In this document: piece after piece, positions 10,564 to 23,267 of the stretch
How positions within the stretch are numbered: position 1 is the first letter of the stretch
Layout: each line of letters begins with the position of its first letter
Assembly (NCBI RefSeq): GCF_000009045.1
Contig: NC_000964.3
Coordinates: 4,170,001 to 4,202,000, forward strand
DNA from: Bacillus subtilis subsp. subtilis str. 168
GTDB taxonomy: Bacteria; Bacillota; Bacilli; Bacillales; Bacillaceae
DNA: 32,000 bases
Direction: 5' to 3'
The notes under the pieces: model-generated
The model's database searches: none
What the model saw: the letters and a program-made list of their open reading frames with translations, nothing else
What the model was told of the DNA's origin: nothing
Program-made: the position numbers and the translations under genes

Positions 10564-11442
10564 TTGGAATGGGAACAACTTGAATATTTTCAAACACTGG
10601 CCCGGATGCAGCACGTCACGAAAGCCGCAAAAAGCCTCTCCATCACACAGCCTGCACTTTCACGCTCTATCGCCAGGCTGGAAAATCATTTGGGCGTCCC
10701 GCTATTTGACAGGCAAGGACGATCCATCAGCTTAAATCAATACGGACACATTTTTTTACGACGGGTTCAGGCGATGATGAAGGAGTATACCGAAGGAAAA
10801 GAAGAAATCCAAGCCTTATTAAAGCCAGACCAAGGCGTAGTCTCTCTCGGTTTTTTACATACATTAGGCACCACGCTCGTGCCCGATCTCATCGGCTCCT
10901 TTCAGCAGGAATACCCCAACATTTCCTTCCAGCTGAAGCAAAACCACTCTTATTGGCTGCTTGAACGATTAAAATCCGGAGATCTGGACCTCTGTCTCCT
11001 CGCTTCGATTAAGCCTGAAAATCCGATCCAATGGATCAAGCTGTGGAGTGAAGAACTCTTTGTATTTGTGCCAAATGATCACCCATTAGCCAGTCGCGAA
11101 AGCATTACCCTGAATGAGATTGCCGGGGAGCGTTTTATTTTATTGAAAAAGGGCTATGCGCTTCGGATGACGGTCGATGAGCTGTTTGAGAAGGCCAATA
11201 TACAGCCGAACATTATGTTTGAAGGAGAAGAAGCAACTACTGCCGCAGGTTTTGTGGCAGCCGGTCTGGGCATATCTATTCTCCCAGACCTGAAAGGCTT
11301 AGACCAAAGCAAAATCACCAAAATCCGCGTCAGCTGGCCGGAATGTCAGCGTGTCATAGGAATTGCCTGGATAAAAGGCAGGTTTTTATCACCGGTTGCT
11401 GAGACCTTTAAACAATATGTGATCAGCCATTTTTCTGAGTAG
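10564..11442 (+). CDS. yybE: LysR-type transcriptional regulator
   Basis: TTG start 7 nt after AAGGAGAG. HTH LEYFQTLARMQHVTKAAKSLSITQPALSRSIARLE. Divergent from MFS gene yybF, the classic LysR layout. Confidence 0.9.
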   Translation: MEWEQLEYFQTLARMQHVTKAAKSLSITQPALSRSIARLENHLGVPLFDRQGRSISLNQYGHIFLRRVQAMMKEYTEGKEEIQALLKPDQGVVSLGFLHTLGTTLVPDLIGSFQQEYPNISFQLKQNHSYWLLERLKSGDLDLCLLASIKPENPIQWIKLWSEELFVFVPNDHPLASRESITLNEIAGERFILLKKGYALRMTVDELFEKANIQPNIMFEGEEATTAAGFVAAGLGISILPDLKGLDQSKITKIRVSWPECQRVIGIAWIKGRFLSPVAETFKQYVISHFSE

Positions 11443-11455
11443 GAAGGATTCAAGC

Positions 11456-11899
11456 ATGAATGTCAAAAAAATCACGTCAGAACAGGATTTACATACAGCG
11501 TTTGAAATCAGAAAGGCAGTATTTGTAGAGGAACAAGGCTGTCCCATTTCGGATGAATTCGATGAGTTCGATACACTCCACGGTGACTGCCAGCACATCC
11601 TGGCTTATCATCAGAATGTACCTGTTGGCACTGCACGTGTCCGTATCGTTGGCCACACGGGGAAACTGGAACGAATCTGCATTCTGAAGTCTTACCGCAA
11701 ATTCGGTTTGGGAAAAGTGATCGTCGATGCATTAGAACGTATTGTAAAAGAACAAGGCATTTCTGCCTTCAAACTGCACGGCCAGACACAGGCGGCAGGC
11801 TTTTATGAAAAGCTCGGCTATCGGACTGCATCAGAAGAATTTATGCTGGACGGCATTCCGCATGTGCTGATGACAAAACAAGACGATTCTGCGCTATAG
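11456..11899 (+). CDS. yybD: GNAT N-acetyltransferase
   Basis: Acetyl-CoA motif ICILKSYRKFGLGKVIV. About 65% aa identity by eye to the product of 14017-14463. Confidence 0.9.
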   Translation: MNVKKITSEQDLHTAFEIRKAVFVEEQGCPISDEFDEFDTLHGDCQHILAYHQNVPVGTARVRIVGHTGKLERICILKSYRKFGLGKVIVDALERIVKEQGISAFKLHGQTQAAGFYEKLGYRTASEEFMLDGIPHVLMTKQDDSAL

Positions 11900-13941: not shown

Positions 13942-14016
13942 GTTTTAACCTTACTATTATAAGACCACATGCGTGCTGTACAGTCCAGACTAATATCAGA
14001 AAAGGATTGATTCATA

Positions 14017-14463
14017 ATGAATATAAAAAGAATAACAACTGAAGCTGATTTACATGAAGCTTTAAAGATTAGAAGAGGCGTTTTCATTGAGGAGCAACAT
14101 GTGTCTGAAGCCGATGAGTTCGATGAATTTGATACGCTTCAGGAACAATGCCAGCATATCTTGGTATATCATGAGAATCAGCCTGTCGGCACCGGACGCG
14201 CGCGCATCGTTGGCCATACAGCAAAGCTGGAAAGAATCTGCATCCTAAAACCTTACCGTAAGTACGGATTGGGGAAGATCATCGTAAGCGGGTTAGAGGA
14301 AATCATGAAAGAAAAAGGACTGACTTCATATAAGCTGCATGGTCAAACACAAGCGGCAGGCTTTTATCAAAAACTGGGCTACCAGATTTCTTCACAGGAA
14401 TTTATGGAGGACGGCATCCCTCACGTCTTGATGACAAAAGAAATATCGCGGAATATAACATGA
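14017..14463 (+). CDS. yyaT: GNAT N-acetyltransferase (paralog of yybD)
   Basis: Motif ICILKPYRKYGLGKIIV. Collinear similarity to YybD over the full length. Confidence 0.9.
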   Translation: MNIKRITTEADLHEALKIRRGVFIEEQHVSEADEFDEFDTLQEQCQHILVYHENQPVGTGRARIVGHTAKLERICILKPYRKYGLGKIIVSGLEEIMKEKGLTSYKLHGQTQAAGFYQKLGYQISSQEFMEDGIPHVLMTKEISRNIT

Positions 14464-15065
14464 AATATATGTATTACGGAATAGGCATACTCATATTAAG
14501 TTTGGGCATTTCCTTAACCATACAATCAGGACTGGGCACATCACCCTTCGATGCCCTTTTGGTTGGTCTGTCAAAAAAAATCGGTCTTACCGTAGGAAGC
14601 TGGGAGGTCCTTATTTCTGTGATCCTCTTAATCTGCAACGCTATATTAACGAGAAAAAAACCTATTTTGCTGGGCTTGATTACAGCATTCATTACTGGAA
14701 TAGGCATTGACCTATGGTTGTTTGTTGTAAAAAACACCATCTATCTAAACTCGTTGTTAAGCAAACTGATTTGTTTTGGAATTGGTTTGGTGCTCATCGG
14801 TCTTGGAACAGCCATCTATCTTCAGACGAAATTCGCATCAACACCGATCGATCATTTAACACTTATTATCCGAGATCTCTCCAAAAGAACAATATTGTTT
14901 TCAAGGACATTGGTATACGCTCTTTTCTTAGTATTAGCCATCATCTTTAAAGGCCCTATCGGCATCGGAACTCTTTTAACGGTTTGTTTGGGAGGAATGC
15001 TCCTTCACGTTTTTATGCCTATTGTGGAAAGACATTTCTTATCAAAGAATAGAAGAGGTTATTAA
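14460..15065 (+). CDS. yyaS: Integral membrane protein (YczE/YyaS/YitT-like)
   Basis: ATGA overlap with yyaT. About 5-6 TM segments. Confidence 0.85.
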   Translation: MKYMYYGIGILILSLGISLTIQSGLGTSPFDALLVGLSKKIGLTVGSWEVLISVILLICNAILTRKKPILLGLITAFITGIGIDLWLFVVKNTIYLNSLLSKLICFGIGLVLIGLGTAIYLQTKFASTPIDHLTLIIRDLSKRTILFSRTLVYALFLVLAIIFKGPIGIGTLLTVCLGGMLLHVFMPIVERHFLSKNRRGY

Positions 15066-15084
15066 GAAACCTCTTCTCGATCCA

Positions 15085-15120
15085 AAAAACGAAACGCAAA
15101 ACAAGCCCCGTTTCGTTGTC
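15085..15120 (-). terminator. Terminator downstream of satA (minus strand)
   Basis: Minus strand reads AACGAAACG...CGTTTCGTT followed by TTTTTT. Confidence 0.6.
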
Positions 15121-15159
15121 AATTCTTTATCTCTGGTACTGTTGAGGTTTTATAATCAA

Positions 15160-15681
15160 TTAAAATTTATAGTACCAAAAAATCGCAATTTCATTTGCTG
15201 TTGGAAAGTTGGAATAAAGCATCGTATCAACCGCACCTATTATAAAGTGATGTTTGGCATAAAAATGACAAGCTGAAATATTAATATCTTGGGTTTCAAG
15301 CATAAGACCACAAAAATGATTCTCCTTTGCCCACTCAATCGCTTTATGTAATAATGCTGTTCCAACACCTTTTTTTCTATAGTCTTTTGCCACGGCAATG
15401 TCCTCTATTAGTGCATACCCATTCCAGTTAGAACGGATCTTAATCCGGCCAATGCAGTTGTTTTCAAGATAATATAAAAAAGCCGCTTTCCCCTCTTCTT
15501 CAACATAACTAACATCCATGTCATCATCTTCATATTGTTTAAAATAAGGTTTAGAAAATCGTTCCTCAGTATATGTCCAAACACCGTTTTCAAAAGCAGG
15601 TATCATTCTCCCAAAAACAACGAAAGGTTCGTTTGGTTTATTGAAATCTTTCATATTCAAATGAGTCATTTTCATGATCAT
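15160..15681 (-). CDS. satA: GNAT acetyltransferase, streptothricin acetyltransferase type
   Basis: ORF 15160-15696. ATG 15681 lies 7 nt after GGAG. Motif IEDIAVAKDYRKKGVGTALL. Recalled as YyaR, renamed SatA. Confidence 0.88.
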   Translation of the reverse strand: MIMKMTHLNMKDFNKPNEPFVVFGRMIPAFENGVWTYTEERFSKPYFKQYEDDDMDVSYVEEEGKAAFLYYLENNCIGRIKIRSNWNGYALIEDIAVAKDYRKKGVGTALLHKAIEWAKENHFCGLMLETQDINISACHFYAKHHFIIGAVDTMLYSNFPTANEIAIFWYYKF

Positions 15682-15870
15682 ATCAATCTCCGCCAATCGA
15701 GATAATATTTAGTAAACTCGTTTCGATACTATTCAACAACAGCTTCCAAAAGTGTACTCTTTAAGAGAACAGCATTAGATAAGGCATCCATTACCTTATA
15801 TATTTCACTATCTTAATGAGGTATTTCAACAGAGGCTTGTGGTACAGTAAAAAGGAATAGAAACAAGAGA

Positions 15871-15981
15871 AAAGAAGATGAACCTATGCCCACTAACAAT
15901 AAACTCAATGAGAAATATCATACTTCCTTCAACTCGCCCACAACCCTGTTGACTAGTATCCGTGGAGAGAGGAAGCTTTGA
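15871..15981 (+). pseudogene. Most decayed copy (copy 1) of the yyaL RBS plus 5' coding end
   Basis: AAAGAAGATGAACCTATGCCCACTAACAATAAAC...CGCCCACAACCCTGTTGACT...GGAAGCTTTGA aligns to 21183-21310 with an ~18-bp deletion and many substitutions. Confidence 0.6.
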
Positions 15982-16091
15982 CACAGCTTCTGCCATTGAT
16001 GACATCTCTATTGAAGTATCCAAAGGACAACCAAGGATCGCTCTTTGACTTTTTCAAGAAGAAAGTAGAGTGAATAAAGGAGTGATTGAGT

Positions 16092-16448
16092 ATGTTAACA
16101 AGAGAAGATATCTTTAAACACGTCAAAGAAAAATACGGTACATCGCCTGATTACCCGTGGGAGAAATACCCAAACTATGCTTCTTTGAGACATACATCAA
16201 ACAAAAAATGGTACGGTCTTATCATGAATGTTCTCCCAGAAAAATTAGGCTTGGATGGTCATGGCGAAATAGATATTCTAAATCTAAAATGTCCCCCTGA
16301 AATAAGTGATCGCTTAAGAAACGGGGAAAATATCTTACCCGGATATCATATGGATAAGGAACATTGGATTTCAATTGTTTTAGAACGGACAGATCCAGAA
16401 GGCGAAATCTATAACTTAATCGAGCAGAGCTTTCATTTAACCAAGTGA
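16092..16448 (+). CDS. yyaQ: MmcQ/YjbR-family small protein
   Basis: ATG 16092 after AAAGGAGTG. Motifs DYPWEKYPNYASLRH, KKWYGLIMNV, LNLKC. Confidence 0.85.
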   Translation: MLTREDIFKHVKEKYGTSPDYPWEKYPNYASLRHTSNKKWYGLIMNVLPEKLGLDGHGEIDILNLKCPPEISDRLRNGENILPGYHMDKEHWISIVLERTDPEGEIYNLIEQSFHLTK

Positions 16449-16607
16449 AGATAAAGAGTGTTCCTGCTAATCAAGCTGCGAAGAGTAGTGGGCACTTTCA
16501 TTTTAGGATACTGTTCTTCACTCTGTCCACAAACGCAACTTAGTTCATCTGGTGCGAGAGTGGGAGAAGAATTTCAACCAACTTCTTATGTAAAAGGATG
16601 AATAGTT

Positions 16608-17174
16608 ATGACAAATAACTTAAAACAGAGAAGAATCATTTTAGATTTAGCAGTTACTTTAGATGGTTTTATTGAAGGGAAAAATGGAGAAGTTGATTGG
16701 TGTATTATGGACCCTGATATGGGGTTTACTGATTTTTTAAATCAAATTGATACTATTTTATATGGTAGAAAAAGCTTCGATTTATGGGGACAATACATTC
16801 CAAAAAATGAAGACCCTGATACAGAAAAGGAACTTTGGAAATTGGTTCATAGTAAAAAGAAATATGTTTTTTCCAGAACACAAAATGAGATTGATAATCA
16901 AGCCATATTTATAAATGATAATATTCTTGAAGAAGTAAATAAATTGAAGAAAAATCCTGGTAAAGACATCTGGCTATATGGTGGAGCGAGTCTCATTACA
17001 ACTTTTATAAATTTGGGGCTTGTTGATGAATTTAGATTATCTATTCACCCTGTTGTTTTGGGAGAAGGAAAACCGTTGTTTATTGATGTAAAACAGAGGA
17101 TAAATTTAAAAATGGTGAATACAAGAACATTTTCCTCTGGCGTTGTGCAAATCGTTTATCATTGGAATGGCTAA
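16608..17174 (+). CDS. yyaP: Dihydrofolate-reductase-like protein (RibD C-terminal domain family)
   Basis: ILDLAVTLDGFIEGKNGEVDW, LYGRKSFD, IWLYGGASL, LSIHPVVLGEGKPLF. The gene is AT-rich. Confidence 0.9.
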   Translation: MTNNLKQRRIILDLAVTLDGFIEGKNGEVDWCIMDPDMGFTDFLNQIDTILYGRKSFDLWGQYIPKNEDPDTEKELWKLVHSKKKYVFSRTQNEIDNQAIFINDNILEEVNKLKKNPGKDIWLYGGASLITTFINLGLVDEFRLSIHPVVLGEGKPLFIDVKQRINLKMVNTRTFSSGVVQIVYHWNG

Positions 17175-17218
17175 CATTGTAAAGTAACACTCGACAGTAA
17201 TCCTTCTTATTGAACTAA

Positions 17219-17252
17219 AGGGGAATCCATAAATAATGGGTTCCCCTTAATA
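17219..17252 (+). terminator. Terminator after yyaP
   Basis: GGGGAATCCAT / ATGGGTTCCCC stem (one mismatch), then TTAATAT. Confidence 0.5.
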
Positions 17253-17398
17253 TACTATGGAATTATCAATATCAAATTTTCTGTAATAAAAGAGGATTGA
17301 AAAGGACGATGTCTCCTCAATTAACATCATTAAGCATTATAGTATATTTTCTTCTCCCTCTTTTAAGTAATCGGCTAAGTTTTGTATTTATAAAAAAA

Positions 17399-17575
17399 CG
17401 AAAGAAGGTGATCCAATGCCTACTAACAATAAACCCAATAGATTAATCGCTGAGAAATCTACTTATTTTACTTCAACATGCTCATAACCCTGTGGACTGG
17501 TTCCCTTGGGGAGAAGAAGCATATGAAAAAGCGAAACGCGAAAACAAGCCTGTTCTCGTATCTATTGGGTATAGC
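17399..17575 (+). pseudogene. Copy 2 of the yyaL RBS plus 5' coding end, frameshifted
   Basis: GAAAGAAGGTGATCCAATGCCTACTAACAATAAACCCAATAGATTAATCGCTGAGAAATC..., roughly 80% identical to 21183-21360. A 1-nt insertion creates in-frame stops. Confidence 0.8.
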
Positions 17576-17625
17576 TAACGATGGCTAATCTAAAGAACAT
17601 GCTATTGATGCCATGTTTATTCATT

Positions 17626-17675
17626 TTACAAAAAAGGATCAACCTTGAATTACTTTCACAAGATTGATCCTTTCA
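17626..17675 (-). terminator. Terminator of tetB
   Basis: Arms AAAGGATCAA (17633-17642) / TTGATCCTTT (17664-17673). A T-run follows on the minus strand. Confidence 0.65.
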
Positions 17676-17680
17676 CTCAT

Positions 17681-19057
17681 TTAGCCATGTCTCCGCGAAC
17701 GTTTATATACATTCAAGATTACTAGCCAACAAATAACAATGATTCCTGCAAAAAGTATGAGCATATTGCTATACAAATAGGTAGAGTGATCAACGTCAAT
17801 AGGCAGCAGCCTATGATCTAGGAAGCCGATAGATAATAAACCGCCTACAATCGCAATACCCGTTCCCTCTGATAAAAAGCTCGTGAAATTAAGCAAACTC
17901 ATTCCAGCGCCCGCTTCCTTTTCTTTCAAACTGCTAGACACAACTGTAGATATAACTGTTTTTGTGAAAGATAGCCCCCCAAAAACAAAAATTACTATAA
18001 TTGTCATGATCCATGGTGCTGCATCTATAAAAAAGGCAGCGATTAAAAAGCCGGAAGAAAGCAATGCACTTCCAATAGTTAGTACATACAAGGAACCTTT
18101 CCGATCAACAAGCAATCCCCCAATGTAACCAAAGATGATGACACTCATTGTTCCGGGGAAAATAATGCCGCTTCCAATTGCTGCAGTACTTAAATGGTGA
18201 ACATCTTTCATCATGTAAGGAACCATAGAGACAAATCCTGCTACTGTACCAAATATTAGTCCTCCGCAAAGGGTTCCAATCACAAAAAAGACGTTTTTCC
18301 CTAATTCAGGGTCAACAAAAGGGTCCTGAGCTTTCCTAATGTGTTGCACAAATATGAAGAAAGCAAGGATACTGATGATCAGAAAAGAAAATCTATAAGA
18401 TGTTGTAAACAGCATAAAAAATACGATACCTGCAGACATCAATATAATCCCTGCCATATCAATGTGTCCTCTTATTCTCTCTTCCTTTTTCAACAATTTT
18501 ATAAGGAATGGAACGGTGATAATTGTTGCAGTTGGAATAAGCAGCAAATACGACCAATGGATATAATGAGCAACCATTCCGCCAATAGCTGGCCCAACAC
18601 CTTCTCCCATTGCTACCAGGGACCCGATCAGGCCAAATGCTTTCCCCCTGTTCTCTTTTGGAATATAGCGCGCAACGACAACCATCACAAGAGCTGGGAA
18701 TGCGGCTGCACCAATTCCTTGAATAAATCGGGCTAGAATGAGAATAGGAAAGAAAGAGTGTCCAACAAATCCAATGATCGACCCTAAGCCATTTACCATA
18801 ATCCCAAATAGAAGCAGATTTTTGATGCCCAGCTGGTCTGATAGCTTTCCATATAGAGCTGTTCCAATGGAGAAGGTTAACATAAAGGCTGTATTCACCC
18901 AGTTTGCACTTGCTGGCAGTTTATTAAACTCGTTGGCAATATCAGGTAATGAGACGTTCAGAACCATTTCATTTAATACGCTGAAAAATGATAGAACACA
19001 AAGCCAAATCAAAACTTGATTGTGCCGTAAAGTTGACTGTGAATAAGACGTATTCAC
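17681..19057 (-). CDS. tetB: Tet(L)-type tetracycline-metal/H+ and Na+(K+)/H+ antiporter, 14-TM MFS
   Basis: GTG start after GGAGGGGAAATT. Motif [13 protein letters not shown]. 458 aa, DHA2-type. Preceded by the characteristic leader peptide. Confidence 0.95.
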
Positions 19058-19063
19058 AATTTC

Positions 19064-19080
19064 CCCTCCATTAATGAGGG
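19064..19080 (-). promoter_or_regulatory. Hairpin sequestering the tetB RBS
   Basis: Minus strand reads CCCTCATTAATGGAGGG. The 3' arm is the tetB Shine-Dalgarno sequence. Confidence 0.55.
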
Positions 19081-19090
19081 CAGACGCAGT

Positions 19091-19153
19091 TTATAGGGTC
19101 ATTGATACGCTTCCCTCTTTTAATTGTACCCTGTTCATTTTATTGCACTTCAT
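19091..19153 (-). CDS. tetL: tet(L) leader peptide (20 aa)
   Basis: MKCNKMNRVQLKEGSVSMTL*, preceded by GGGGGAG. Lies 33 nt upstream of the tetB start. Confidence 0.8.
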   Translation of the reverse strand: MKCNKMNRVQLKEGSVSMTL

Positions 19154-19405
19154 AATAACTCCCCCTACATTTGATTGATATGATCTTATTATATATAGAC
19201 TAAGGATTAAACTTTTACTTTTTTTATAAAAATTTGACCAGATTGCGAAACAAGGAAAAACGTTATTCGCATTTATCTCAAGTGGCAAAATGAAACATTA
19301 GTTTATATTTTCACATCACAATTATCGATAAGCAGTCAGTTATTGTATTTGTTTAGGATAACTGTGGTAACCTGAATATAACCAACTTAGGAAGAAGGTG
19401 ATCCC

Positions 19406-19645
19406 ATGCCAAATAAAAGTAAACCCAATAGATTAATCGCTGAAAAGTCTCCTTATTTACTCCAACACGCCCACAACCCTGTGGACTGGTTCCCGTGGGG
19501 AGAAGAAGCATTTGCAAAAGCAAAACGCGAAAACAAGCCGGTTCTGGTCAGCATCGGTTATTCGACGACTTGTCATTGGTGGCCTGGGATAATCAAATCG
19601 TGTGGAACTCCATTAAAAGATAACAGAAGCCATTTTAAACGATAA
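19406..19645 (+). pseudogene. yyaO: Copy 3 of the yyaL 5' end (truncated paralog)
   Basis: 19388-19581 aligns to 21180-21370 with ~9 mismatches and a 3-bp insertion (CGA). [36 protein letters not shown]...[11 protein letters not shown], then unrelated sequence. Confidence 0.85.
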
Positions 19646-19694
19646 TACTATTTGTTCAAACAATACAGTCTACCTTTTATTTCATTCATTTTCT

Positions 19695-19737
19695 AAAACC
19701 TGTAATCCGTAACCACGCGGTAGCAGGTTTTTTTATT
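19695..19737 (+). terminator. Terminator after the yyaO fragment
   Basis: AAAACCTG...CAGGTTTT stem followed by a T-run. Confidence 0.55.
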
Positions 19738-19740
19738 TGC

Positions 19741-19771
19741 TTGACTTAGAGTTAACTCTAAATTGTAAACT
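19741..19771 (+). promoter_or_regulatory. MerR-type promoter/operator of yyaN-yyaM
   Basis: TTGACT (19741-19746), 19-nt spacer containing the perfect palindrome TTAGAGTTAACTCTAA, then TAAACT (19766-19771). Confidence 0.65.
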
Positions 19772-19783
19772 AACTTTAATTAA

Positions 19784-20212
19784 ATGAGAGGGATGATGTT
19801 GTTGTATTCCATTAGTAAAGCTGCTGAGAAGACTAGTATTAGTTCGTATACATTAAGATATTACGAAAAGATTGGGTTACTTCCACCACCAAAACGAAAA
19901 AACAGTGGAAGGCGTTTTTATACGGAGACTGATATTCAGTTCATGTTATTCCTGAAAAGTTTAAAGGAAACAGGTATGTCTTTGGAGGATATTAATGAGT
20001 TTGTCAAAGACGGATGCATTTTGGAAAAAATCAATTCGGATGTTAAATCGGCACAACTCTCCCCATCTATAAATAAACGTATTGAGATTTTAACCAAGCA
20101 CTTAGAGAAAATGGAAATTAAAAAAAGGGAGCTGGAAGAAGTGATTTCTACTACAAAAGGAAAACTGGATACATATTATTCAATTTTGAAAGAGGAAGTG
20201 GAAAACAAATGA
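19784..20212 (+). CDS. yyaN: MerR-family transcriptional regulator
   Basis: HTH YSISKAAEKTSISSYTLRYYEKIGLLPPP...GRRFYTETDIQ and a C-terminal coiled coil. Exact start uncertain (ATG 19784/19793/19796). Confidence 0.9.
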   Translation: MRGMMLLYSISKAAEKTSISSYTLRYYEKIGLLPPPKRKNSGRRFYTETDIQFMLFLKSLKETGMSLEDINEFVKDGCILEKINSDVKSAQLSPSINKRIEILTKHLEKMEIKKRELEEVISTTKGKLDTYYSILKEEVENK

Positions 20213-21126
20213 AACATTTAAATATATACATAATGTTACTTGGCTTCTCTATTTTCACGGGAGCTACTTTTAATCTTGCAAAATATACAGTTGGATATTT
20301 TTCTCCATCGTCTTCTGCGGCATGGCGTTTCGGTTTAGCGGCTGCAGTGATGCTCATCATTTTGATTTTTACTGAAGGTATAAAGAAGAGTCAATTACGG
20401 AAAAACGCCGTTTCATACATTGTTCTTGGAATTATAGGAATCTTTGGATTTAATGCCTTGTTTTTTGTTGGTTTAAAATATACATCTCCCGTTAACGGAG
20501 CATTAATAATGGGGCTGAATCCTTTATTAACAGCAATTCTCGCTCGAATTATCTTAAAGGACAACATGACAAAAAAACAAGTACTCGGCATATTCTTTGC
20601 ATTCATCGGTGTATTGTTAGTCATTACACAAGGTTCTATCGAAACCATTAAAACCTTATCAATTTCAGGAGGAGACTTAATAATCTTTACAGGTAACGTT
20701 TGTTGGGCACTTTATGGCGTACTTGGACGTCGGTTTGTAAAGGATGGTACACCGCTATCTACAACCACTTATACGATGGTTATTGGTGCTGTTAGTTTAA
20801 TAGTAGTTTCCTTATTTACATCCAAACCTGTTTCTTTATCGAACATCCCGATTGGAGTTTGGGGGGCAATTGCTTTTATGGCTTTTTTTACAAGTGTTTT
20901 GGGTTACCTATGGTGGAATCAGGGGATTAAAGAGATTGGAGCTAGTAAAACATCTTTATTTTTCAACCTTGTTCCCGTTGTAACGATGATTATTTCATTT
21001 GCCGTTGGAACACCAATAAAGGTATTTCAAGTTATTGGGGCTGTGCTAGTTATATTAGGCGTTTTAACCGCTTCGGGGGTAATACGTATTCCTAAGTACA
21101 ATACTAAAGAACAGTCAGCTATATAA
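20209..21126 (+). CDS. yyaM: EamA/DMT-family transporter (10 TM)
   Basis: ATGA overlap with yyaN. Two EamA-like halves. Confidence 0.9.
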   Translation: MKHLNIYIMLLGFSIFTGATFNLAKYTVGYFSPSSSAAWRFGLAAAVMLIILIFTEGIKKSQLRKNAVSYIVLGIIGIFGFNALFFVGLKYTSPVNGALIMGLNPLLTAILARIILKDNMTKKQVLGIFFAFIGVLLVITQGSIETIKTLSISGGDLIIFTGNVCWALYGVLGRRFVKDGTPLSTTTYTMVIGAVSLIVVSLFTSKPVSLSNIPIGVWGAIAFMAFFTSVLGYLWWNQGIKEIGASKTSLFFNLVPVVTMIISFAVGTPIKVFQVIGAVLVILGVLTASGVIRIPKYNTKEQSAI

Positions 21127-21197
21127 AGAAATAGGGAGTATTTTTGAGAAAATGTGTTAAGTTAAATATACACTAATTATAGGAAGAAGGTGATCCC

Positions 21198-23267
21198 ATG
21201 CCAAACAAAAGTAAACCCAATAGATTAATCAATGAGAAATCACCATATTTACTCCAACACGCCCACAACCCTGTGGACTGGTTCCCGTGGGGAGAAGAAG
21301 CTTTTGAAAAAGCAAAACGCGAAAACAAGCCGGTTCTGGTCAGCATCGGTTATTCGACTTGTCATTGGTGCCACGTGATGGCCCACGAAAGCTTTGAAGA
21401 CGAAGAAATCGCGCGTCTTCTCAATGAACGGTTTGTGGCGATTAAAGTCGACCGGGAAGAGCGGCCTGATGTGGATTCTGTTTATATGAGAATCTGCCAG
21501 CTGATGACCGGGCAGGGCGGCTGGCCGCTGAATGTGTTTATCACGCCTGATCAAAAGCCGTTTTACGCGGGTACATATTTTCCAAAGACGAGCAAATTCA
21601 ATCGTCCCGGTTTTGTTGATGTGCTTGAGCATCTGTCTGAGACGTTTGCGAACGACCGCGAGCATGTCGAGGATATTGCGGAGAACGCCGCTAAACATTT
21701 GCAGACCAAAACAGCTGCAAAAACTGGTGAGGGCCTTAGCGAATCAGCGATTCACCGGACATTCCAGCAGCTTGCCAGCGGGTTTGACACGATCTACGGC
21801 GGTTTCGGGCAGGCACCGAAATTTCCAATGCCTCATATGCTGATGTATTTGCTACGTTATGATCACAATACAGGGCAGGAGAACGCTCTATACAACGTGA
21901 CGAAAACATTGGACAGCATGGCGAATGGCGGCATTTACGATCATATCGGCTATGGGTTCGCCCGCTATTCGACCGATGACGAGTGGCTCGTTCCCCACTT
22001 TGAAAAAATGCTGTACGACAATGCGCTGCTGCTGACCGCTTATACAGAAGCCTATCAGGTCACGCAAAACAGCCGCTATAAAGAGATTTGTGAGCAGATC
22101 ATTACGTTCATTCAGAGGGAAATGACTCATGAAGACGGAAGCTTTTTCTCGGCTTTGGACGCGGACACAGAAGGAGAAGAAGGAAAGTACTACGTGTGGT
22201 CAAAGGAAGAGATTCTAAAAACGCTCGGGGACGATCTCGGAACGCTGTATTGCCAAGTGTATGACATCACTGAAGAAGGAAACTTTGAAGGCAAAAATAT
22301 TCCTAACCTCATTCACACAAAGCGAGAACAAATCAAAGAGGATGCCGGGTTAACCGAAAAAGAGCTCAGTCTCAAACTCGAAGACGCAAGACAGCAGCTC
22401 TTGAAGACACGCGAGGAAAGAACCTATCCGCATGTCGATGATAAAGTGCTTACCTCATGGAACGCGCTGATGATCGCGGGTCTTGCGAAAGCGGCAAAGG
22501 TATACCAGGAGCCGAAATATCTCAGCCTAGCGAAAGACGCCATCACATTTATTGAAAACAAATTAATCATCGACGGCCGTGTGATGGTCCGATATCGTGA
22601 TGGCGAAGTGAAAAACAAAGGCTTTATCGACGATTACGCTTTTCTCCTATGGGCTTATCTGGATCTCTATGAAGCTTCGTTTGATCTTTCTTATTTACAA
22701 AAAGCGAAGAAACTGACAGACGATATGATCAGCTTATTTTGGGATGAGGAGCATGGCGGATTCTACTTCACCGGACACGATGCAGAAGCCTTAATCGTAC
22801 GGGAAAAAGAAGTGTACGACGGCGCCGTGCCTTCAGGAAACAGTGTGGCAGCTGTTCAGCTGCTGCGTCTCGGGCAAGTCACAGGCGACTTATCACTGAT
22901 CGAAAAAGCGGAAACAATGTTTTCCGTGTTCAAGCCAGACATAGAAGCGTATCCGAGCGGCCATGCTTTCTTTATGCAAAGTGTGTTAAGGCATCTGATG
23001 CCTAAAAAAGAAATCGTGATTTTTGGCAGCGCAGACGATCCAGCCAGAAAACAAATTATAGCGGAGCTTCAAAAAGCCTTTAAGCCCAACGACTCCATTC
23101 TGGTGGCAGAGCAGCCCGAGCAATGCAAAGACATTGCGCCATTTGCAGCAGACTACCGCATCATAGACGGCAAAACAACCGTTTATATTTGTGAAAACTT
23201 CGCCTGCCAGCAACCGACAACAAATATTGAAGAAGCGATCCACACATTAATAAGCAGCAGGGATTAA
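21198..23267 (+). CDS. yyaL: Thioredoxin-fold (DUF255) plus six-hairpin domain protein
   Basis: [24 protein letters not shown] redox-like motif, [10 protein letters not shown]. 689 aa. Confidence 0.95.

Follow-up and report, generated by a model that had tools for sequence, protein, structure and literature searches.

Repeated yyaL gene starts in Bacillus subtilis 168 mark a probable attachment site of recombinase-encoding conjugative elements

Introduction

In Bacillus subtilis 168, the start of yyaL is repeated upstream of the intact gene, with cassettes of other genes between the copies. Here we ask how this array was built, using a 32,000-nucleotide stretch of the chromosome (NC_000964.3, positions 4,170,001 to 4,202,000; hereafter the window). 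We consider it likely that yyaL codons 47-66 are the chromosomal attB of an ICE family that encodes a large serine recombinase (LSR), and that the window is the residue of at least three insertions. Repeated docking at yyaL would account for the arrival of the tetracycline-resistance gene and its neighbors.

Results

The yyaL gene start is present four times

The yyaL RBS and about 57 codons occur four times in the window, all in the same direction, with successive copies spaced 1.6-2.0 kb apart (BLAST E on the order of 1e-18 to 1e-83). Queried with the intact yyaL 5' end, BLASTN returned the other three copies in the window sequence (locus L081) at E = 2.5e-18, 2.8e-49, and 6.2e-83, so the direct copies noticed in the original prediction are real.

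15869..15997, plus strand: copy 1, a decayed yyaL RBS and 5' end with internal deletions, of the element-type lineage E (marker ACTAACAATAAAC)
17399..17575, plus strand: copy 2, an E-lineage mimic of the yyaL 5' end (RBS and codons 1-53), ending in GGGTATAGC and then a TAA stop
19388..19584, plus strand: copy 3, a host-type (H) 5' end with a 3-bp insertion and its core at 19571-19584; a putative attL-type junction, followed by GGTGGCCTGGGAT
19406-19645, plus strand: yyaO, a fragment ORF that begins within copy 3
21180..21373, plus strand: copy 4, the functional yyaL RBS and codons 1-59
21198..23267, plus strand: yyaL, the target gene (ATG at 21198), encoding a DUF255 thioredoxin-domain protein of 689 aa (Pfam PF03190, E = 4.4e-80)

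Two right limits had been set too short in the original prediction: copy 2 reaches 17633 with its junction arms and copy 1 reaches 16024, since the orthologous copy in B. mojavensis shows 15998-16024 to be a decayed junction arm. Copy 3 is 94.8% identical to the intact gene, the 5' part of copy 2 is 84% identical to it with a 1-nt insertion, and copy 1 is 63-64% identical to the other copies. The stretch missing from copy 1 is retained in the B. mojavensis ortholog (L083, 483-586). Decay thus does rise numerically with distance from the intact gene, as first proposed, but it does not serve as a clock, being confounded by two sequence lineages. These lineages, already suspected from ACTAACAATAAAC versus AAAYAAAAGTAAAC, are borne out by comparison of the copies. 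The copies abutting yyaL in B. tequilensis and B. subtilis CP195112 share 94-95% identity with copy 2, whose divergence from the intact gene therefore reflects lineage rather than decay in place.

Direct orientation and similar spacing are what local duplication would give, with the yyaL 5' end multiplied by slippage or unequal crossing-over and other, unrelated genes drifting in afterwards. However, the nearest relatives of copy 2 are in B. tequilensis and licheniformis-group metagenome contigs rather than next to it in the window, cargo at the site differs entirely from species to species, and foreign att arms lie at the junctions. The phylogeny of the copies already contradicts local duplication, which we regard as very improbable. 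The yyaL start also appears to have a history separate from that of the gene body, as judged by decoupled third-codon identities. Compared with B. subtilis, B. atrophaeus and B. velezensis both have a third-codon identity of 79% in the first 174 nt versus about 50% in the rest of yyaL; for B. mojavensis it is 65.5% in the first 174 nt versus 70-75% elsewhere.

Cassette cargo

The three intervals between the copies hold the following genes, assigned by Pfam.

16086..17174, plus strand: cassette 1, yyaQ (YjbR family, 16086-16448) and yyaP (RibD_C family, 16608-17174)
17630..19211, minus strand: cassette 2, a tet(L)-like segment with tetB (MFS_1, 17681-19057) and its leader
19784..21126, plus strand: cassette 3, yyaN (MerR family, 19784-20212) and yyaM (EamA family, 20209-21126)

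Cassette 1 also occurs in other B. subtilis strains and in B. mojavensis; cassette 3 is absent from B. subtilis strains L097, L107, L108, and L109. Identity to plasmid tet(L), at about 80%, is confined to 17630-19211 and begins at the end of the P' arm that follows copy 2. The region from 15.2 to 21.2 kb has a GC content of 0.31-0.41 versus 0.46-0.50 for yyaL, in line with the expectation that the cassettes would be more AT-rich. A separate terminator for each cassette was not borne out, with a scan giving three sites versus 4.2 expected by chance.

A common breakpoint and attachment-site arms

The limits of the copies are uniform. In 23 of 23 copies from eight genome backgrounds, the start lies at -17 to -20 and the end at TGYCAYTG. 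The window copies begin at about -17 and share the end point TGTCATT/GGTGCCA, which codes for the CHWC motif, and interspecies synteny to the right resumes exactly at 21180-21184. In L095 and L096, the insertion point falls at 21373-21376. From these limits, the att site appears to be centered on TGTCATT/GG, with the following candidate elements.

15998..16024, plus strand: decayed P' arm (element left end) after copy 1, with which it would form an attL-type junction
17576..17606, plus strand: P arm of an attP-type site, with about 20 nt that the yyaL coding sequence lacks
17607..17633, plus strand: P' arm after copy 2, which with the P arm would form an attP-like (P-O-P') site centered at 17606/17607
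21340..21393, plus strand: putative attB, with core TGTCATTGGTGCCA at 21360-21373 (codons C55-H59, CHWCH) and crossover near 21366/21367

Of the 27 bases in the arm after copy 1, 22 agree with the P' arm at the orthologous junction in B. mojavensis. After copy 2, the P' arm falls into one family with those that adjoin the LSR gene in B. mojavensis and L097. The P arm there, with its arm sequence at 17580-17606, agrees when reverse-complemented with the B. licheniformis ICE P' arm at 20 of 27 bases. Over the 17 outer bases, P arms agree with the reverse complements of P' arms at 8.8 positions, versus 4.57 +/- 0.48 in shuffles. The junctions had been thought to lack inverted repeats, but the P and P' arms of copy 2 are such repeats. 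The motif GGNTA lies 24 nt from the center in the P and P' arms (GGCTA in the copy 2 P arm) versus 19 nt in attB (GGTTA), which matches the 5-bp attP/attB offset described for LSR sites (PMC11722253). Judged by this architecture, copies 1 and 3 appear to be attL-type, copy 2 a mimic of the element lineage with a complete attP-like site, and intact yyaL the probable holder of a still-usable attB. Neither the junction after copy 3 nor that after the L095 restriction-modification cassette resembles the P' arms beside LSR genes; the junction motif after copy 3 is also found in B. atrophaeus.

LSR-encoding elements occupy the same site elsewhere

yyaL is intact in B. licheniformis L086-L090, and at the same place in L099-L105 there is a 52-aa fragment followed by genes for an LSR, a Rap regulator, a CwlT-like hydrolase, and a VirB4-like ATPase. 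In B. subtilis L096, L097, L107, and L108, an LSR gene and ICE genes lie directly past the breakpoint. The LSR gene is within 75 bp of the junction in the polymorphic insertions. Its 502-aa product has Resolvase, Recombinase, and Zn_ribbon_recom domains, is encoded next to conjugation genes, and gives a full-length alignment to SPbeta integrase structures (E = 2.7e-28). Among Bacillus species its orthologs share 58-97% identity, and the B. mojavensis array retains a decayed 233-aa remnant (75.5% identical).

The early guess of a recombinase acting in trans thus proved right, with the enzyme carried on conjugative elements of other strains. The window had been read as recombinase-free, and tblastn with the LSR family found at this site elsewhere indeed gave no remnant in it. 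The window likewise has no DNA homology to the ICE backbones compared with it; the att footprints are the one putative link between the strain 168 cassettes and ICEs.

An integron-like platform had also been suggested, in which a dedicated integrase captures cassettes at an attI-like site at the yyaL start. Resistance and detoxification cargo serially ordered at one point, in units bounded by repeats, fits such a platform. But no tyrosine (IntI-type) integrase lies beside the array, a repeat search gave no attC-like imperfect palindromes, and promoterless single-gene cassettes are absent; the cassettes are multi-gene, with their own regulators and in both orientations. Where a recombinase does lie at this site in other genomes, it is of the serine class and element-borne. 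We therefore reject the integron label, which has only the slightest chance of being correct, as the repeat consists of a target-gene end and LSR att arms.

The number and content of cassettes vary within and between species, so the array is not present or absent as one block. Among B. subtilis strains, L109 and L115 have two cassettes, the window has three, and L095 and L114 have four; L097 has other cargo, and three cassettes plus an ICE are also seen. B. subtilis CP195112 (L095) is identical (100%) to the window up to 21373, where a 2.5-kb restriction-modification cassette follows and the gene body is abutted by a different 5' copy (78% identical); this one cassette is all that distinguishes it from a 168-type strain. 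CP103328 (L109) lacks yyaN-yyaM, and its functional 5' end has the upstream flank and diagnostic bases of copy 3, which is thus its counterpart. Both strains support repeated insertion at one point with the older 5' end displaced to the left and a further copy placed beside the gene, though these are two-state comparisons, each compatible with gain or precise loss.

Some copies are chimeric. The L097 copy at 1647-1840 has a left part resembling copy 2 and a right part of host type, the gene start of B. mojavensis is mosaic in a similar way, and copy 3 mixes L109-type and copy-4-type bases on a fine scale. This suggests that homologous recombination spreads and repairs the array. RecA-dependent recombination could also have built it alone, if foreign DNA with a yyaL 5' segment of about 190 bp, circular or linear, entered by natural transformation and integrated through a Campbell-type event or a double crossover, without help from a site-specific recombinase. 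The mosaics, the window cassettes without a recombinase, and the near-identity of L095 to a 168-type strain all favor this. It would leave unexplained, however, why every copy ends within the same few bases, why inverted P/P' arms have a 5-bp offset, and why LSR genes lie so close to the junctions, and it has no source for a fragment with such fixed limits. We consider it unlikely as the sole cause; homologous recombination is most likely a secondary process of spreading and repair. The homology-facilitated illegitimate recombination raised earlier is not needed, with ordinary homologous recombination probably helping, as the chimeric copies indicate.

Discussion

A model for the array

In the LSR-mediated insertion that we favor, integration would cut yyaL so that the host RBS and 57 codons remain to the left, away from the gene body, where they form attL with the element P' arm. 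The element end beside the gene body would be its own yyaL 5' mimic, comprising the RBS, 53 codons, a stop, and then the P arm. As the host 5' end stays and the element brings a mimic, each event would add one gene-start copy. A constant junction, a shared lineage, and co-variation of the P arm with the P' family suggest that the mimic and P arm are element-borne. Later deletion may have removed the recombinase and transfer genes, leaving only cargo. Precise excision may have restored intact yyaL, as may gene conversion or homologous recombination in the copies of about 190 bp, and a usable attB would have returned with it for the next element to land on.

Read in this way, the window would run from copy 1 (attL-type) and yyaQ-yyaP to copy 2 (mimic and P-O-P') and tet(L), then to copy 3 (attL-type), yyaN-yyaM, and copy 4. 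We infer that the LSR catalyzes the insertions, and that such elements, not transformation with DNA of a donor array, brought the three cassettes to strain 168. The P-O-P' site of copy 2 is not the product of a simple attP x attB reaction, and would call for insertion in tandem or as a dimer, or else for an attR x attP event of an atypical kind. Since B-type arms lie on both sides of yyaNM (copies 3 and 4), a repair step must be assumed there.

Relation to known systems

Bacillus LSR elements are found in protein-coding genes, with SPbeta/SprA in spsM, skin/SpoIVCA in sigK, and phi3T in kamA (PMC4191935, PMC5499854, PMC6957869). The elements at yyaL resemble them in recombinase class (with the full-length match to the SPbeta integrase), in having the recombinase gene at the element edge adjoining attL, in targeting a short, partly symmetric site within coding sequence, and in their similar attP/attB half-site offset. 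However, the yyaL-site LSR is only about 32% identical to those integrases, its vehicle is a conjugative element rather than a prophage, the element side has a mimic of the target gene start of about 180 bp, and the site holds a remnant array of several generations rather than one element.

Accretion arrays and cis-mobilizable elements devoid of a recombinase include the CIMEs beside ICESt1 and ICESt3 at fda in Streptococcus thermophilus and the composite SCCmec/pseudo-SCC arrays at the end of rlmH (orfX), where SCC uses large serine recombinases (Ccr) as the yyaL-site elements do. These arrays likewise have elements and remnants in tandem at one att site, units bounded by repeated att copies, some without a recombinase, and cargo rich in resistance and defense genes. 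For a review of IMEs, see PMC5704250. In contrast to their direct repeats of 15-30 bp at the 3' end of a gene, the yyaL repeat combines about 195 bp of gene start with att arms, and its target is a gene 5' end. Most window units are also no longer legitimate attL/attR pairs, and so are probably immobile.

Other elements carry a substitute gene end. Phage 21 and e14 bring the last 165 bp or so of icd in E. coli, and SXT brings the 5' end of prfC in Vibrio. As at yyaL, the insert is flanked by a long, diverged duplicate of the target gene end, and for phage 21 and e14 the displaced original end persists as a pseudogene (icdC there, yyaO in the window). These three differ from the yyaL-site elements in relying on tyrosine integrases and in supplying a substitute end that restores the gene, whereas the yyaL mimic closes with a stop codon and the 20-nt P arm. 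Next to the element-lineage mimic, yyaL is split into ORFs of 53 aa and 629 aa, and an intact gene appears to be regained only through a later step. As a guide to how common such arrays may be, DUF255 N-terminal fragments of 48-92 aa form 580 clusters across Bacillales.

Four copies of the yyaL gene start separate three cassettes

By repeat search and alignment of the window, we found the yyaL ribosome-binding site and first ~57 codons at four places, all in direct orientation. BLASTN also confirmed these four copies, which had been claimed from the sequence alone, and the Pfam assignments of the genes between them match the cargo originally predicted.

Copies of the yyaL 5' end in the window, with identity to the functional copy and BLASTN E value, and the cargo between them (Pfam families)
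near 15869-16024, plus strand: copy 1; 63.5% identity; E = 2.5e-18
between copies 1 and 2: cassette 1, yyaQ (YjbR family) and yyaP (RibD_C family)
17399-17633, plus strand: copy 2; 83.7% identity; E = 2.8e-49
between copies 2 and 3, strand opposite to the copies: cassette 2, tetB (MFS family)
19388-19584, plus strand: copy 3; 94.8% identity; E = 6.2e-83
between copy 3 and the functional copy: cassette 3, yyaN (MerR family) and yyaM (EamA family)
21180-21373, plus strand: copy 4, the functional copy; yyaL ATG at 21198

The GC content of the array is 0.31-0.41, compared with 0.46-0.50 for yyaL. The original prediction gave each cassette its own terminator, which was not confirmed, as a simple terminator scan of the window performed only at chance level. 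Just downstream of tetB, at 17625-17670, an inverted repeat (GGATCAACCTTG...CAAGATTGATCC) is followed by a minus-strand T run. This looks like a putative tetB terminator, with a loop too long for the limit of the scan. The integron-like label given to the array was abandoned: no IntI integrase occurs among the ORFs and Pfam matches of 13.0-24.5 kb, a repeat search gave no attC-like paired inverted repeats, and the cassettes occur in either orientation and bring regulators of their own.

The genes yyaS and satA/yyaR (14460-15696) are AT-rich like the cassettes, with a GC content of 0.35-0.39, and B. velezensis homology to the window ends at about 14441, before both. Possibly they are older cargo that no longer has its bounding copy. 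In the B. subtilis locus L096, SatA is only 89.7% identical, compared with 96-99% for the neighbouring genes. Two GNAT acetyltransferase genes at 11441-11881 and 14003-14442 are ~71% identical at the DNA level and appear to be paralogs flanking a MarR/metallo-beta-lactamase region.

The copies share their limits across Bacillus species

Comparative loci were obtained via exact-protein look-ups, one of which gave a B. subtilis genome whose gene order agrees with that of the window, the yya region of a 168-type chromosome. A genome-collection scan with full-length YyaL, dominated by the universal DWFPWGEE motif, returned, among the matches listed, relatives of at most 56% identity, none from the B. 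subtilis group. We aligned 23 copies from the window, B. subtilis loci L095, L096, L097 and L107-L109, B. tequilensis, B. mojavensis, B. atrophaeus, B. halotolerans, B. velezensis and B. licheniformis. All 23 begin at -17 to -20 (GAAAGAAGGTGATCC), and all 23 end at TGYCAYTG, within the codons of the thioredoxin-type CHWC motif. Mapping the breakpoints in search of a common core, as had been suggested, thus gave a single shared endpoint. Rightward collinear homology between species begins exactly at window position 21180-21184. Left of this point all sequence differs between species, except for the copies and the yyaQ-yyaP (yyaQP) cassette, which is common to B. mojavensis.

Copies of the yyaL 5' end within 10 kb upstream
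B. subtilis: 4
B. tequilensis: 3
B. mojavensis: 3
B. halotolerans: 3
B. atrophaeus: 2
B. velezensis: 1, plus an inverted 51-bp piece
B. licheniformis: 1

The B. velezensis piece (L085 5668-5718, minus strand) is 100% identical to its own gene and lies inverted ~4.3 kb upstream of yyaL, with no other part of a copy around it. In B. mojavensis (L083 ~415-445) and B. halotolerans (L092 ~1885-1915), an extra P'-like arm (GGTGCCATGTTCGTTTAGAATAACCAAAA) without a preceding 5' copy is found ~60 nt upstream of the leftmost partial copies, which indicates that both arrays extend further left with more decayed junctions.

A large serine recombinase and conjugative elements lie at the breakpoint in other strains

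Locus L096 (JBTYIL010000001), reached through a look-up of the yyaO fragment protein, is 96.6% identical to the window up to 21376. Past this position, a gene for a 502-aa recombinase starts 75 bp on and is followed by conjugation-type genes. The protein contains Resolvase (PF00239), Recombinase (PF07508) and zinc-ribbon (PF13408) domains, and its residues 7-481 align with the SPbeta integrase structure 9dxh (E = 2.7e-28). Based on this domain set and the whole-length alignment to a solved SPbeta integrase, we identified it as a large serine recombinase (LSR). Its start lies at most 75 bp past the junction in L096, B. licheniformis L099 and B. subtilis L108, at the edge of the element. Relatives with 58-97% identity occur in B. 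subtilis, B. velezensis, B. amyloliquefaciens, B. licheniformis, B. pumilus and others; no close relatives were found on plasmids or phages, where the best match was ~32% identical.

In B. licheniformis, the occupied allele (L099) encodes a 52-aa YyaL fragment followed by an LSR ortholog and genes of an integrative conjugative element (ICE), and the empty allele (L086) has intact yyaL at exactly the same chromosomal position, with flanks identical up to TGTCATTG. Empty and occupied alleles with precise junctions at a short shared core are also seen for the window versus L095/L096 and for L109 versus L107/L108, all B. subtilis. An LSR-ICE occupies this breakpoint in three more B. subtilis strains, two of which have additional genes between the junction and the recombinase, an arsenic operon in one and a DAC-domain gene in another. 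Within flanks of at most 10 kb, in related strains only, Pfam identified conjugation genes linked to the LSR: an NLPC_P60+SLT hydrolase, an AAA_10 VirB4-like ATPase, large 736-816-aa proteins, DUF4467 and a Rap regulator. No relaxase, coupling protein or element right end was seen in these flanks, nor was a directionality factor identified. The B. mojavensis array contains a truncated 233-aa LSR remnant.

The earlier observation that no recombinase is visible holds for the window itself, where the LSR gave no tblastn match at E <= 1e-3 and no DNA homology to the ICE backbone was found, but the recombinase is present at the same site in other strains. Local duplication was rejected as the origin of the array, as was homology-facilitated illegitimate recombination, which had been offered as a mechanism, as the primary process. 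A search of plasmids, ICEs and phages for a yyaL-5'-like segment beside the cargo had also been suggested. Plasmids gave only full-length YyaL homologs, on large Paenibacillus and other replicons, and plasmid tet(L) homology is limited to window 17630-19211 and includes no yyaL piece. The E-copy/P-arm junction and the attL junction, both described below, had no match in viral contigs.

Within ~2 kb upstream of yyaL, B. velezensis has an HTH and Peptidase_M78 pair (L085 8062-8948), an ImmR/ImmA-type mobile-element regulatory module, and B. mojavensis has a lone Peptidase_M78 gene (L083 8550-9068). Both are consistent with remnants of ICE right ends.

Attachment-site architecture

Right of the breakpoint, the left ends of the elements (P' arms of attP) fall into three sequence families, GTTCGTATAGCTACACA, GGCATGTTTATAAAAATACCCA and GGCATGTTTGCTAGATTACCCA, each represented at one or more junctions that precede an LSR gene. 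Putative right ends occur where a copy abuts the gene body, in B. subtilis CP195112 (locus L095), B. tequilensis, a licheniformis-group Logan contig and 4 of 6 metagenome contigs (two of those 4 being identical at the junction). In all of these, GGGTATAGC is followed by a stop codon, ~20 extra nt and ACATGYCAYTGG. The ~20 extra nt (P arms) form an imperfect inverted repeat of the P' arms, with a mean of 8.8 of 17 outer bases matching versus 4.57 +/- 0.48 in shuffles.

Attachment-site arms in the window
15998-16024: P' arm after copy 1
17580-17606: P arm of copy 2
17607-17633: P' arm of copy 2, forming an attP-like site with the P arm
21360-21373: uninterrupted core in intact yyaL

In large serine integrases, the outer motifs for DBD2 and the zinc ribbon lie ~5 bp further from the centre in attP than in attB half-sites (PMC11722253). 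Here, both the P arms and two of the three P' families have a GGNTA that starts at a distance of 24 nt from the centre, and in the yyaL B arm of attB this distance is 19 nt. The pattern is less distinct in the right (B') half of attB, with GGGCC at 17 nt. The predicted sites therefore have the attP/attB offset of LSR-type junctions, matching the 5-bp outward shift. The P-O-P' layout of copy 2 would call for either an atypical reaction or insertion as a tandem or dimer. Neither the sequence that follows copy 3 nor the one that follows the CP195112 restriction-modification cassette matches P' arms adjoining LSR genes; the former has 13 nt in common with a B. atrophaeus junction.

Cassette number varies between strains

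The number of cassettes varies within B. subtilis: two, three, three plus restriction-modification, and three plus ICE. Alleles with only yyaQP and tet, and intact yyaL directly after tet, are found in CP103328 (locus L109), four similar places and one metagenome contig. Others have the three cassettes of the window, these three with an EcoO109I-type restriction-modification cassette (CP195112 and one metagenome contig), or these three with an LSR-ICE at the fourth copy (L096). In L097, yyaQP is followed by wholly different cargo and an ICE. Together with the common breakpoint and the att-type junctions, the LSR-ICE insertions in other strains support the predicted serial insertion at the yyaL site.

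Pairs of alleles place the displaced 5' ends. In CP195112, the copy on the left side of the extra cassette matches the functional copy of the window at 100% identity up to 21373, and the copy adjoining the gene is of the E type with 78% identity. The functional 5' end of CP103328 has the upstream flank and diagnostic bases of copy 3, so the yyaN-yyaM (yyaNM) unit (window 19582-21373) parts the displaced 5' end from the current one. Read from such pairwise alleles, each cassette difference may be a gain or a precise loss, and in both cases it is bounded by the core. The CP195112 restriction-modification unit is 2.5 kb, recombinase-less, and the only one with an attL-type and an attR-type site at its ends. 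Judged by sequence, the units in the window pair attL with attP or attL with attB, and such pairs are not legitimate substrates for LSR excision.

Cargo at this site in other strains has mostly defence and detoxification functions.

Cargo at the yyaL site in other strains (locus coordinates)
L107 12237-14547, B. subtilis: arsenic-resistance operon
L097 8507-9973, B. subtilis: DAC-domain protein
L095 12173-14266, B. subtilis: EcoO109I-type restriction-modification pair
L083 5292-7208, B. mojavensis: SIR2 protein
L106 2710-7333: sulfur-transfer/rhodanese cluster

In a comparison of shared cargo, yyaM was rejected as an ortholog of the EamA gene adjoining B. velezensis yyaL.

Two lineages of the copy and probable rebuilding of yyaL

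The two sequence variants noted originally correspond to an element-type (E) and a host-type (H) lineage. The E lineage, marked by ACTAACAATAAAC and GTATCTATTGGGTATAGC, contains window copies 1 and 2 and every copy that has a P arm after it; window copy 2 shares 94-95% identity with the E-type copies of B. tequilensis and CP195112. The H lineage includes copies 3 and 4 together with intact yyaL genes from several species. The E-type copy is joined to the P arm at a constant base and is found with several P-arm versions, which vary in parallel with the P' families. This argues that it travels with the element, and we infer that the E-type 5' mimic is element-borne, the ICE sequence seen being left ends within 10-kb flanks. 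An E-type copy directly beside the gene leaves yyaL as two ORFs, one of 53 aa and one of 627-629 aa that starts at M61, and the CHWC motif goes untranslated. The copies beside yyaNM in the window and beside tet in L109 are in frame and possibly arose after repair.

The gene start also bears signs of homologous recombination. A chimera in L097 (1647-1840) resembles copy 2 in its left part, flank included, and is host-type in its right part; the gene start of B. mojavensis has an E-like beginning and an H-like end; and copy 3 is mosaic on a fine scale. When B. subtilis is compared with distant species, third-codon identity is 70-79% in the first 174 nt of yyaL and ~50% over the remainder. In the comparison with B. 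mojavensis, a close relative, the first 174 nt fall below the gene body. This pattern indicates that the yyaL gene start has its own, horizontally mixed history.

Since an in-frame B-type arm cannot double as a P arm, the intact genes beside cargo were presumably rebuilt. Possible routes are transformation with an intact allele and, inside the copies, recombination or gene conversion; any of these would regenerate attB for the next insertion. A further proposal, which we consider rather unlikely, is that the 5' mimic beside attP is a working part, serving as a left homology arm with which host recombination rebuilds yyaL and a fresh attB while the cargo is kept, making an LSR landing site into an open-ended cassette accumulator. 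If so, it would be a functional integron analogue made from a serine recombinase and RecA, and attL/attR units such as the CP195112 restriction-modification cassette would retain the ability to be mobilised in trans.

Comparison with known systems and wider distribution

The recombinase and site logic resemble those of the LSR elements SPbeta, skin and phi3T, although the yyaL-site enzyme is only ~32% identical and the vehicle here is conjugative. The array, with its recombinase-less units, is similar to ICE/SCC accretion sites of the CIME or pseudo-SCC type; L096 has the three recombinase-less window cassettes followed by an autonomous LSR-ICE at the same site. Phage 21/e14 at icd has a similarly long duplicate of a gene end, but the element-lineage duplicate of yyaL appears not to restore the gene.

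This reading of the array gives a concrete origin for a well-known oddity of the model strain 168, namely its chromosomal tet(L), yyaO fragment and orphan drug and detoxification genes beside the replication origin. It places the docking site of a widespread family of Bacillus conjugative elements at yyaL codons 47-66. We found no description of this element family, or of yyaL as an attachment site, in the literature searched, with most subscription journals and ICE databases outside that search. The array appears to record a mobile-element landing site becoming a durable reservoir of resistance and defence functions (restriction-modification, SIR2, arsenic, tetracycline), and the attP/attB pair, together with the LSR, could be developed as a new orthogonal integration tool for Bacillus.

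Short fragments of the YyaL N-terminus make up 580 protein clusters, from Bacillus, Paenibacillus, Exiguobacterium, Lentibacillus and Sporolactobacillus. Their presence in several genera suggests that the site is probably in wide use, well beyond B. subtilis. The 56-kb plasmid NZ_CP013207.1 of Paenibacillus sp. IHB B 3084 (match H26) matches the YyaL N-terminus at two places, which may reflect a similar duplication outside Bacillus.
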